Source: a virus (Duplodnaviria; Heunggongvirae; Uroviricota; Caudoviricetes). Taken from it: a stretch of 19,272 nucleotides of DNA. Made by a program: the position numbers. Positions 7,701 through 10,700 of the stretch are shown in pieces. Within the stretch, counting starts at the first letter, position 1. Every line of letters starts with the position of its first letter. The DNA lies in IMG/VR virus record IMGVR_UViG_2541047431_000016; one strand, written 5' to 3'.

Positions 7701-10700
7701 TGCGTCTGAAACAAACTTTATATAATCAAACCGCTGCAGCGCAGACAATTCGGAAAGCGTGACGGACACACCGTTATATTCAAATTGTTCTGTTTTCAGA
7801 AACATGTATTACCTCCGTTTACCCTGCAGCGCCCGCTTCAGTAACGGTGACTTCAGCCACTGCGGCGAACTGACCATTTCCGCTCACCACAGGGATCTGC
7901 ACCTTACCTGTCGCCACGCCGTTTACCGTAATTGTCATATCTTTCACACTAATGGTGGCTTTCGACGGATCGGCGGAAACCGCTCTGAACGTCTTGTCGG
8001 TTGCACTTTCCGGCTCAAAAGAAACCGTCAGGGTGGTTGTTTTCCCTTTTGCCACCGTACCGGATGTCGGTGTCACCTTAATTGCAGTGGCCGGCGTAAT
8101 TTCGCTGCGTTCTTCCGCCACGGAACGGACGTCCCACGTTGGTGACTTTCACCGTGCGGGTGATCACTTCTTTCGCCGTCACGGCCTTACCGATACTGCT
8201 GACCCAGCCACGAAACACATCCACCGTGCCATTCGGAAAACGGATTTTATAGGCCCGGACATCGCCGCTTTCAAACCAGCCTATAAGCCCTTTCTGGCCT
8301 TCCTCTCCCGGTTTCCAGGCCAGCGTAAAACTGGTATCACCTGCAGATTTCTGCCCCTGCCCGGTCGCGGTCCAGTCCGCGTCTTCATCATCCAGGTAGT
8401 TATCATCGTAGGATTCTGCCGTCATCTCGCCCGGCGTCAGATCCTTCACCTTAGCCAGTCGCTGCCAGTCATCGTCTGACAACGGGTTTGCATAGGCGTC
8501 ACCCTGACCGTTATAAACCCACAGGGTGGTACCGGCTCCTTTTACCGGCTCCAGGGGAATTCGTGTTTCGGCTTGACGTAGCCCGGACGTAACACGCGGG
8601 TTTCACCACCGCGATGACGCAGCACTTTTCCTTCAACAACCGGGGAGACATAGGCCGCCACCGGCGTTTTTCCGGTAATTTTGTCCAGCATCACCTCTTC
8701 GGTATGGAAATTCACCGTACGGCGGAAAAACAGCTCCAGAAACAGCGCACGAAATTTCACTTTTTGTTCGGTATAACCGAGTAACTGGCGGGTCGTAAAC
8801 AATCCCATAAATCAGTTCCTTTCATTCAGAAATCAGTCAGGCCACCGCGGTGGCCTGATAACGTGTTACGGCAGCGCCGCGTGACTCAGGGCACTGCCGG
8901 CAAAGGCATTTGCCTTTTTGTGTTCATCCACACTTTCAGGCCAGCGGATTGCCTCCGTCGCAAAGGTCCCCGACTTGTAATAGGTCAGTACCGTCTCTGT
9001 GCCTTCAAGCGGCAGTACCAGTATGCCAACTGCACTACCGGCTTTCTGTCCGTCCCAGACCACCAGTTTCCCGCTGGCTTCATCCAGCATCAGGGGCGTC
9101 AGTGCCGGTGTTGCCGAGGAAATCCCGCTGCTGCCTGTGGCGGTATGAGCCGGATCATTACCGGCAAAAATACGTACTTCCGCACGCTGTTCAGTGATGT
9201 TTTTCGTTACCATATTGTAAAAACCTCCTGTTGATGGTCAGCACTGACTTCATGGCATGGCCATGAGCATTTTCACGTCCGCATCACCGTCTGCTGACGT
9301 CTGTGGCACGCCACCCTGTACCGCAGCCGGTGAATGGTTCGCCATGATGCGTTCAAACAGGGCGGTTGTGGATGCAGAGACCGGTTCTGCCTTACCTGAT
9401 CCCGCAGCCAGCACAGCCCGGGCGCTCTCCACAGTCATTCCCGGGCAGGCAGCCAGCTGTTCAGCCTGCGCCTCAGCCCCTTTTGCCTCATCCAGTGCCA
9501 TGATCTGATCACGGAGTGAGGGTCCGGCATCCGCCTGCGGTGAAGCAGCCAGGATCGGGCGGGCTTTTTCCACCGTCATCTCCGGCATCGCCGCCAGCGT
9601 TGCCGCCAGTTGTTCACGACCGTTCGCTTCTTCACACGCCATAATGCGATCGGCTTCACTCTGCGTGGATGCCACCGGCTGCTGCGGTGCCGCCGCGGCC
9701 AGAATCGCCCGGGCCTGTTCAACGCTCATGCCCTGTTGTCCTGCCAGCATCGTGGCAAGCTGTTCACGTCCTTTCGCTTCCTGGCATGTCAGGATCCCCA
9801 TCACTCGCTGGTTCTCCTGCGCGGCGGCTTCCGTTGCAGTTAATTGCGGCATAGTGCCTCCTCTGACATTACTGTTCAGCGCCGTGGCCATCACACTGAT
9901 GGCATCCGACGCATTGACTAATTCATCCGCCAGCCCGGCATCAATGCCGGACTGACCTTCAAAAACGGCGGCCTCTGTTCCCGTGACGGCATCAACAGAC
10001 AGACCGGTAAACATGGCCACTTTTTCGGCAAACATCCGGCGCGCCGCATCAATGCGCTGCTGCATGTTCTGGCGAACCTCTGCCGGTAAGGCTTCAAACT
10101 GATTGCCATCCACCTTGTGCGCCCCTGAGTAAATCAGCGTGATATCCACACCGGCCTGCGCCAGATGACCGGCATAGCTGACATGGCTCATCATCACGCC
10201 AATGGAGCCGATACGGGATGTCTGGGTAACCAGCCGTCGGGAGCAGGCCGACGCCAGCAGCATGGCTGCAGAACAGGCCGTGTCATTGCACAGTGCCCAG
10301 ACCGGCTTCTGCTGACGGAGGCGGTAAATCATGTCAGCGCAGTCAAACGCGCCGGCGGCCTGCCCGCCCGGACTGTCAATGTCCAGCAGTACGCCCCGCA
10401 CCTGGCTATCCGCCATTGCCTGCTGAAGACAGGCGACAATGCCGTCATAGCCTGTCATTCCGGAAAATGGCCGCATACCCCCCAGCCGGTGCACCAGCGT
10501 GCCGGTCACCGGCAGTACAGCAATACCGTTCACCACCCGGTAAACACGGGCCGGTCGTTTACCTCCGGCCATGTACTCGTCCGTTTCAGCCAGCATTCCG
10601 GGAGCATCAAGCTGTACCTGCTGCTGTGGTACCGAAAGACTTGCTGCCCCCATCTCGCGCCCGAGCGCGCAAAAGAAAACCCGCGCATAGGCGGGCTCCA

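Follow-up and report, generated by a model that had tools for sequence, protein, structure and literature searches.

Gene content of the window

The DNA analysed here (the window) is the whole 19,272-nucleotide stretch of IMG/VR record IMGVR_UViG_2541047431_000016. Its late genes lie on the minus strand in lambda-like order, as located by tblastn with the proteins of the Escherichia coli O55:H7 DEC5E prophage (Table 1). The window termini lie inside J and inside an IS, so that the attachment site and the cargo, which for Sp14-type prophages are serU and the genes tccP and espJ, fall outside.

The gene series is broken between the major capsid gene E and the tail tube gene V. The E C-terminus, FI, FII, Z, U, and the V start are absent, as the preliminary description of this DNA had listed; a tblastn search over the whole window with the FI, FII, Z, and U proteins of an intact relative gave no match anywhere in it. 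The size then given for the missing segment, roughly 3.5 kb, was an overestimate, as the loss amounts to about 2.5–2.6 kb across four relatives and lambda: 2,522 bp relative to both the O55:H7 DEC5E prophage and PhiR12_2_star, 2,512 bp relative to phage 204576, 2,554 bp relative to phage 21, and about 2,583 bp relative to lambda (E 6135-7160, V from 8955).

Table 1. Coordinates of the late genes, the gene remnants, and the junction features in the window.
Feature	Position	Strand	Evidence
Nu1	14934-14428	minus	tblastn with DEC5E proteins
A	14453-12527, two frames	minus	tblastn with DEC5E proteins
W, B, C, D	in order after A	minus	tblastn with DEC5E proteins
E	from 8808; N-terminal part, with native residues up to 84 (8558)	minus	tblastn
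E', truncated major capsid gene	8542..8808	minus	ORF list, translation, Pfam, lambda alignment
AACACGAATT, E copy of the imperfect 10-bp repeat	8558..8567	minus	parent-site comparison
Deletion junction	8557..8558		end of four-reference alignment, parent-site comparison, 40-mer
V' N-terminal tube domain, codons 6-149	8126..8557	minus	tblastn 98.6%, Pfam, lambda gpV
V' C-terminal Ig-like (Big_2) domain, codons 150-250	7819..8124	minus, different frame	tblastn, Pfam
G, T, H, M, L, K, I	in order after V	minus	tblastn with DEC5E proteins
J	from 1683, first part only	minus	tblastn with DEC5E proteins
Junction-bearing block (Nu1, A, W, B, C/Nu3, D, E', V' N-terminus)	8143..15500	minus	mismatch counts per 500 bp, HSP tables

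Structure of the junction

The breakpoints were mapped against four intact references: phage 21, phage 204576, PhiR12_2_star, and the O55:H7 DEC5E prophage. The E-side DNA match to phage 21 gene 7/E (97.7%) ceases at window position 8558, and the same end point was obtained with the three further relatives. Position 8558 is the last E-derived base and position 8557 the first V-derived base. Read on the gene strand, the junction is ...CCGAAACACGAATT/CCCCTGGAGCCGGTAAAAGG (in longer form, ...GTCAAGCCGAAACACGAATT/CCCCTGGAGCCGGTAAAAGG...), and the corresponding sequences in intact relatives are ...CCGAAACACGAATT-TAATTACCAG at the E site and GAGGACGATATGGCAACACCAAAT-CCCCTGGAGCCGG at the V site. E is kept through codon 84 (breakpoint at nt 251) and V from nt 16 (codon 6), the V frame being one base off the E frame. 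Residue F84 of E is retained, its codon changing from TTT to TTC at the join and still specifying Phe.

The alignment to intact relatives thus upholds the main claim of the preliminary description, namely that the capsid gene E is fused to the tail tube gene V in a different frame at a GAATTC sequence, and the homologies to lambda-like references end and start essentially where it had put them. The breakpoint codons were placed correctly and now need only slight adjustment, from about 83 to exactly 84 in E and from about 5 to a start at codon 6 in V. The few bases that were thought to separate the two homologies do not exist, because V follows E directly with zero intervening bases.

The GAATTC sequence, at 8557-8562, was formed by the join itself, with GAATT coming from E and C from V. 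In all four intact relatives, the parental sites read GAATTT in E and AAATCC in V; the GAATTC at both parental sites that an EcoRI-engineered deletion calls for is found in none of them. The sequence is a coincidence of the join rather than a trace of EcoRI, and the significance that had been implied for it is unfounded. A search for a promoter or terminator newly made at the junction found none; the sole minus-strand hairpin within 8300-8900 is the normal D–E intergenic one, at 8858-8837.

The capsid and tail tube gene remnants

Translation of the E' ORF (8808..8542) yields 88 aa, consisting of 84 native codons followed by the out-of-frame residues PWSR and a TAA stop at 8544-8542. Its start and upstream region are intact. 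The Pfam profile Phage_cap_E (PF03864) matches this ORF over profile positions 1-80 of 329 (E=1.5e-14), and lambda gpE residues 1-83 align with it at 57% identity. E' is therefore not a full-length lambda-type E, which has ~340 aa and spans the whole profile; in intact relatives, the gene measures 1,029 nt, and in the window it is truncated at codon 84. In the Sakai genome, the same remnant is annotated twice, as ECs_2730 and ECs_1110, each a ‘phage head protein’ gene of 267 nt.

V' persists as two pieces in different frames, which tblastn places at 8557..8126 (residues 6-149, 98.6%) and 8124..7822 (residues 150-250). The Pfam profile Phage_TTP_12 (PF16461) is matched over positions 1-132 of 135 (E=1.6e-69), Big_2 is matched in the C-terminal part (E=1.6e-19), and residues 6-149 of lambda gpV are 88% identical to the N-terminal piece. 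Both the tube and the Ig-like domains are thus recognizable, and V' does not form a single uninterrupted ORF with a ribosome-binding site and start of its own. V codons 1-5, the Shine-Dalgarno sequence GAGGA, and the ATG have all been deleted: the native V site in intact relatives is GAGGA-N5-ATGGCAACACCAAAT, and the whole of it is lost in the window. From the junction onward, the V frame contains no ATG, GTG, or TTG ahead of a TTG at 8482 (about codon 31).

A second interruption of V is a 1-base insertion near 8126, where alignment to three V genes sets ggacgtccgttcc against ggcaaacc-ttcc. The insertion is accompanied by a small cluster of substitutions and shifts the frame after codon 149. 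It is specific to the window and lies on the border of the block with 100% identity to Sp14 (see below).

In O157 genomes, the NCBI pipeline PGAP treats V as complete, annotating a 246-aa ‘phage tail protein’ (WP_029208397.1) that starts at an ATT within the junction (8560-8558 in window coordinates); examples are the calls at 20241-20981 in locus L003 and 24720-25460 in locus L004. The older Sakai annotation has an internal ATG start and a product of 209 aa. Because the ribosome-binding site is absent, the PGAP start is doubtful, and the intact-V annotation is probably an over-call that has been repeated across hundreds of O157 genomes. Judging from the sequence, we infer that V translation is lacking in the deletion allele, and some translation from the PGAP-annotated ATT may occur.

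Distribution of the junction

A 120-bp probe centred on the junction aligned over its full length to 300 of the 5,426 complete E. coli genomes, the matches listed all being 100% identical. In genomes that have only an intact E, the probe match ends exactly at the breakpoint. The exact junction 40-mer is present in both Sakai prophages, Sp4 and Sp14, and in two further O157 strains, as well as in 10 contigs of IMG/VR and one contig from a food metagenome, these contigs being either partial or different outside the shared block. The 40-mer is absent among GTDB species-representative genomes. Sakai therefore carries the junction twice, once in Sp14 (ECs_2730/ECs_2729, the latter annotated as ‘phage major tail protein’), where it adjoins tccP and espJ, and once in Sp4 (ECs_1110/ECs_1111), where it adjoins tccP2 and serT.

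This distribution bears on whether the junction could be an assembly or cloning artefact, i.e. a chimeric join between prophage repeats or an EcoRI deletion made in vitro. Repeats of lambdoid prophages often cause mis-assemblies, the junction has a GAATTC, and single-base indels occur elsewhere in the window (at 7407, 8126, and 14184). However, an EcoRI cut is impossible where both parental sites lack GAATTC, and the exact junction recurs in 300 independently finished genomes, including twice in Sakai, and again in IMG/VR and metagenome contigs. An artefact is thus effectively refuted, and we give it practically no chance.

The deletion was already known in the sense that the lesion is annotated in Sp4 and Sp14 of E. 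coli O157:H7. For the exact breakpoints, a literature search by the locus tags ECs2730, ECs1110, ECs2729, and ECs1111 returned irrelevant papers; the published record found consists of table-level scoring (PMC2669165), together with the genome annotations. In that work, both Sp4 and Sp14 were scored as ‘Head: defective; Major tail: defective’ (Asadulghani et al. 2009, PMC2669165).

Relationship to intact prophages, Sp14, and Sp4

Phage 21 and intact lambdoid prophages with phage-21-type heads (for example, O55:H7 DEC5E and phage PhiR12_2_star) share with the window the colinear order Nu1-A-W-B-C-D-E...V-G-T-H-M-L-K-I-J. Their DNA is 96–98% identical to that of the window on the head side and, for the closer ones, 92–97% identical on the V side. 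They carry full E, FI, FII, Z, U, and V with its own start, whereas the window is minus those 2.5 kb. An intact ancestor with 100% identical flanks was not found; the exact deleted sequence is thus reconstructed from nearest intact relatives that are 96–98%, not 100%, identical.

Closer still is Sp14 (CP-933U). Over window positions 8143-15500, the match to Sp14 of O157:H7 strain 3-5-1 is perfect (0 differences, 100% identity) and that to Sakai Sp14 has two differences; this block is flanked on both sides by divergent sequence. The window and Sp14 have in common the identical junction 40-mer and late-region sequence, an IS629/IS1203 insertion beside the holin gene (between it and an esterase-like gene), a PerC-family (pchC) gene between the lysis genes and nu1, and the gene order from Nu1 to D; by these features, the window is of the Sp14/CP-933U type. 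It differs in its tail genes, which from mid-V onward are about 95–96% identical to those of Sp14, and in having a divergent G allele, the +1 frameshift in V, a fused G-T, and a 618-bp in-frame deletion in J. Across the whole window, no match above 98.3% identity (93% coverage) was obtained among the complete E. coli genomes of the collection, and the best match among them to the tail half of the window is 96.5%.

Sp4 (CP-933M) has the identical junction as well, within a 9.4-kb block identical to that of Sp14. In contrast to the window, in which the Nu1 ORF is intact and 100% identical to DEC5E Nu1, Sp4 has an IS-disrupted nu1 and a rearranged lysis region. The two Sakai prophages have 0 differences across a 9.4-kb stretch that includes the junction and extends from the nu1 remnant to mid-H (L019 19828-29266 vs L007), and they diverge by 3–8% beyond it. 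Such 100% identity followed by divergence clearly points to a recent exchange, or gene conversion, between the prophages.

Identical blocks sit in the otherwise diverged Sp4, Sp14, and window; homologous recombination has therefore passed the deletion block from one prophage to another, carrying it, after the deletion arose, into Sp4, Sp14, and the mosaic represented by the window. The junction block is now in at least three mosaic prophage backgrounds.

Origin of the deletion

Immediately 5' of the breakpoints, E has the ten bases AACACGAATT and V the ten bases AACACCAAAT, identical to each other at 8 positions. The V copy of this imperfect repeat (V nt 6-15) was lost in the deletion. When 200,000 random breakpoint pairs were drawn from each of three intact relatives, identity of at least 8/10 was found at a frequency of 5.5–6.8e-4 (about 6e-4). 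Because the identity of the flanks exceeds chance, a short-homology event is favoured. The unambiguous shared sequence at the crossover is the terminal T alone (1 base), and a perfect 10-bp microhomology, as the BLAST overlap had indicated, was rejected because the V copy differs at 2/10 positions.

We propose that a single illegitimate recombination event would have removed ~2,522 bp, from E codon 85 through FI, FII, Z, and U to V codon 5. Recombination would most likely have taken place at the imperfect 10-bp repeat (AACACGAATT/AACACCAAAT), with the E copy being retained, through slipped mispairing or copy choice during replication, i.e. a RecA-independent event at short homology. As the homology is imperfect, the slippage mechanism is plausible but not proven.

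Insertion sequences offer a different route to the same junction. IS629 may once have been located between E and V, and its excision may have taken flanking DNA along with the element, leaving no IS behind. The prophage family has several IS elements: IS629/IS1203 is found at window 18770-19272, at the same site as in Sp14, and both IS629 and ISEc8 are present in Sp4. In O157, an IS-excision enhancer promotes such excision. Against this, the junction has no IS sequence, terminal inverted repeat, or target duplication, E abuts V directly with the 8/10 homology of the flanks, and none of the loci examined has an IS between E and V. We therefore consider IS excision unlikely. A simple IS-adjacent deletion was rejected, there being no IS end or foreign base at the junction.

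Taken together, we consider it very likely that the junction arose as a loss-of-function deletion in the late operon, by illegitimate recombination in a prophage of the Sp14/Sp4 kind with a phage-21-type head, and that the block bearing it moved later. The deletion is ordinary prophage decay.

Other lesions in the window

Several further differences from related prophages were observed. At the G/T slippery site (A AAA AAG; 7400-7407, minus strand), the window has 7 A and a related IMG/VR contig (L013) has 6. The extra A at 7407 hard-fuses G and T into a 287-aa ORF (7805..6942), so that no free G is possible; the extra base reflects either a genuine slippage mutation or a sequencing error in the homopolymer. 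The chaperone gene G itself (7425-7805, minus strand) encodes a protein 49% identical to G of the closest relatives, whereas the flanking V and T are 95–98% identical, and window positions 7404-7731 have no megablast alignment to Sp4 or Sp14. The G allele appears from these comparisons to be a small mosaic replacement.

The gene for the terminase large subunit, A, has a poly-C tract of 10 C at 14184 (minus strand), compared with 9 C in Sakai Sp14, and this change splits A into the ORFs 14510..14169 and 14218..12524. Strain 3-5-1 of O157 has this frameshift in its annotation, and A is intact in Sakai. In Sp4 of PV15-279, A is marked as frameshifted, and over 14001-14401 its alignment departs from the window at a single position.

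J has a 618-bp in-frame deletion at 771/772 (minus strand), by which residues 305-510 are gone relative to Sp14, Sp4, and the DEC5E prophage. This deletion is not unique to the window, as one IMG/VR contig (L010) aligns straight across it. Upstream of nu1, the PerC-family (pchC-like) gene (15945..15556, minus strand) is 98% identical to the O157 Sp14 copy over residues 1-63, after which the loss of one base from an A run at ~15757 shifts the frame, giving 129 aa compared with 104 aa. The IS629/IS1203 end at 18770-19272 has three single-base indels, at 18793, 18825, and 18858, relative to O157 copies, none of them in a homopolymer. The lesions in the operon together fit relaxed selection on a dead morphogenesis module.

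Functional consequences

In lambda, E, FII, U, and V are indispensable for head and tail formation, and infectious tails additionally require Z. Because E, FI, FII, Z, U, and the V start are lost, the element is expected from lambda genetics to be unable to build a capsid shell or to complete and join tails. Late transcription would still make the 88-aa E stub, and there would be no capsid shell protein, FI, FII, Z, or U. V would be without a canonical start, and the +1 frameshift at ~8126 would break the V of the window a second time. The statement in the preliminary description that the prophage is unable to build capsids or complete tails follows from the same genetics, and it agrees with the scoring of Sp4 and Sp14 (PMC2669165). 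We infer that any packaging of the element would require proteins supplied by co-resident prophages. Sp4 DNA is still packaged in Sakai, presumably by other prophages, and Sp14 DNA is not; no transfer of Sp4 was found in the published tests (PMC2669165).

A rival reading is that the reduced architecture is maintained by selection rather than being mere decay. The element might be a helper-dependent, satellite-like one that keeps cos, terminase, portal, protease, and D and borrows capsid and tail-completion proteins, or the E stub might inhibit capsid assembly by competitors. Consistent with selection are the retention by the stub of its own start and upstream region, the largely intact upstream packaging module that is identical across Sp4, Sp14, and the window, the packaging of Sp4 DNA in trans in Sakai (PMC2669165), and the spread of the block to at least three prophage backgrounds. 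However, the same operon has accumulated the poly-C frameshift in A, the V frameshift, the G-T fusion, and the J deletion, a pattern of relaxed selection; the 100% conservation is explicable by the recent origin of the O157:H7 clone; and Sp14 DNA was unpackaged and Sp4 untransferred in the published tests (PMC2669165). Selection for the reduced architecture is therefore highly improbable. The particular form in which the late block is a selected helper-dependent module that spreads by recombination among co-resident lambdoid prophages, with the 88-aa stub acting as a dominant negative against capsid assembly by competing phage-21-type phages, seems to us just as improbable, and the present analysis yielded no positive evidence for a selected module or an inhibitory stub.

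Significance

The exact junction is a clean sequence marker of the prophage block, and the identical 7–9-kb blocks in otherwise diverged prophages make a tidy example of inter-prophage recombination. The analysis also flags an annotation problem: in hundreds of O157 genomes, PGAP has V begin at an ATT and presents it as an intact protein of 246 aa. Beyond correct annotation, the finding matters little. For the biology of these prophages, the deletion explains why the one in the window, like Sp4 and Sp14, makes no virions of its own and depends on co-resident prophages for packaging. This helper dependence bears on the strain-to-strain movement of effector cargo, which in O157 is of the tccP/tccP2 class.
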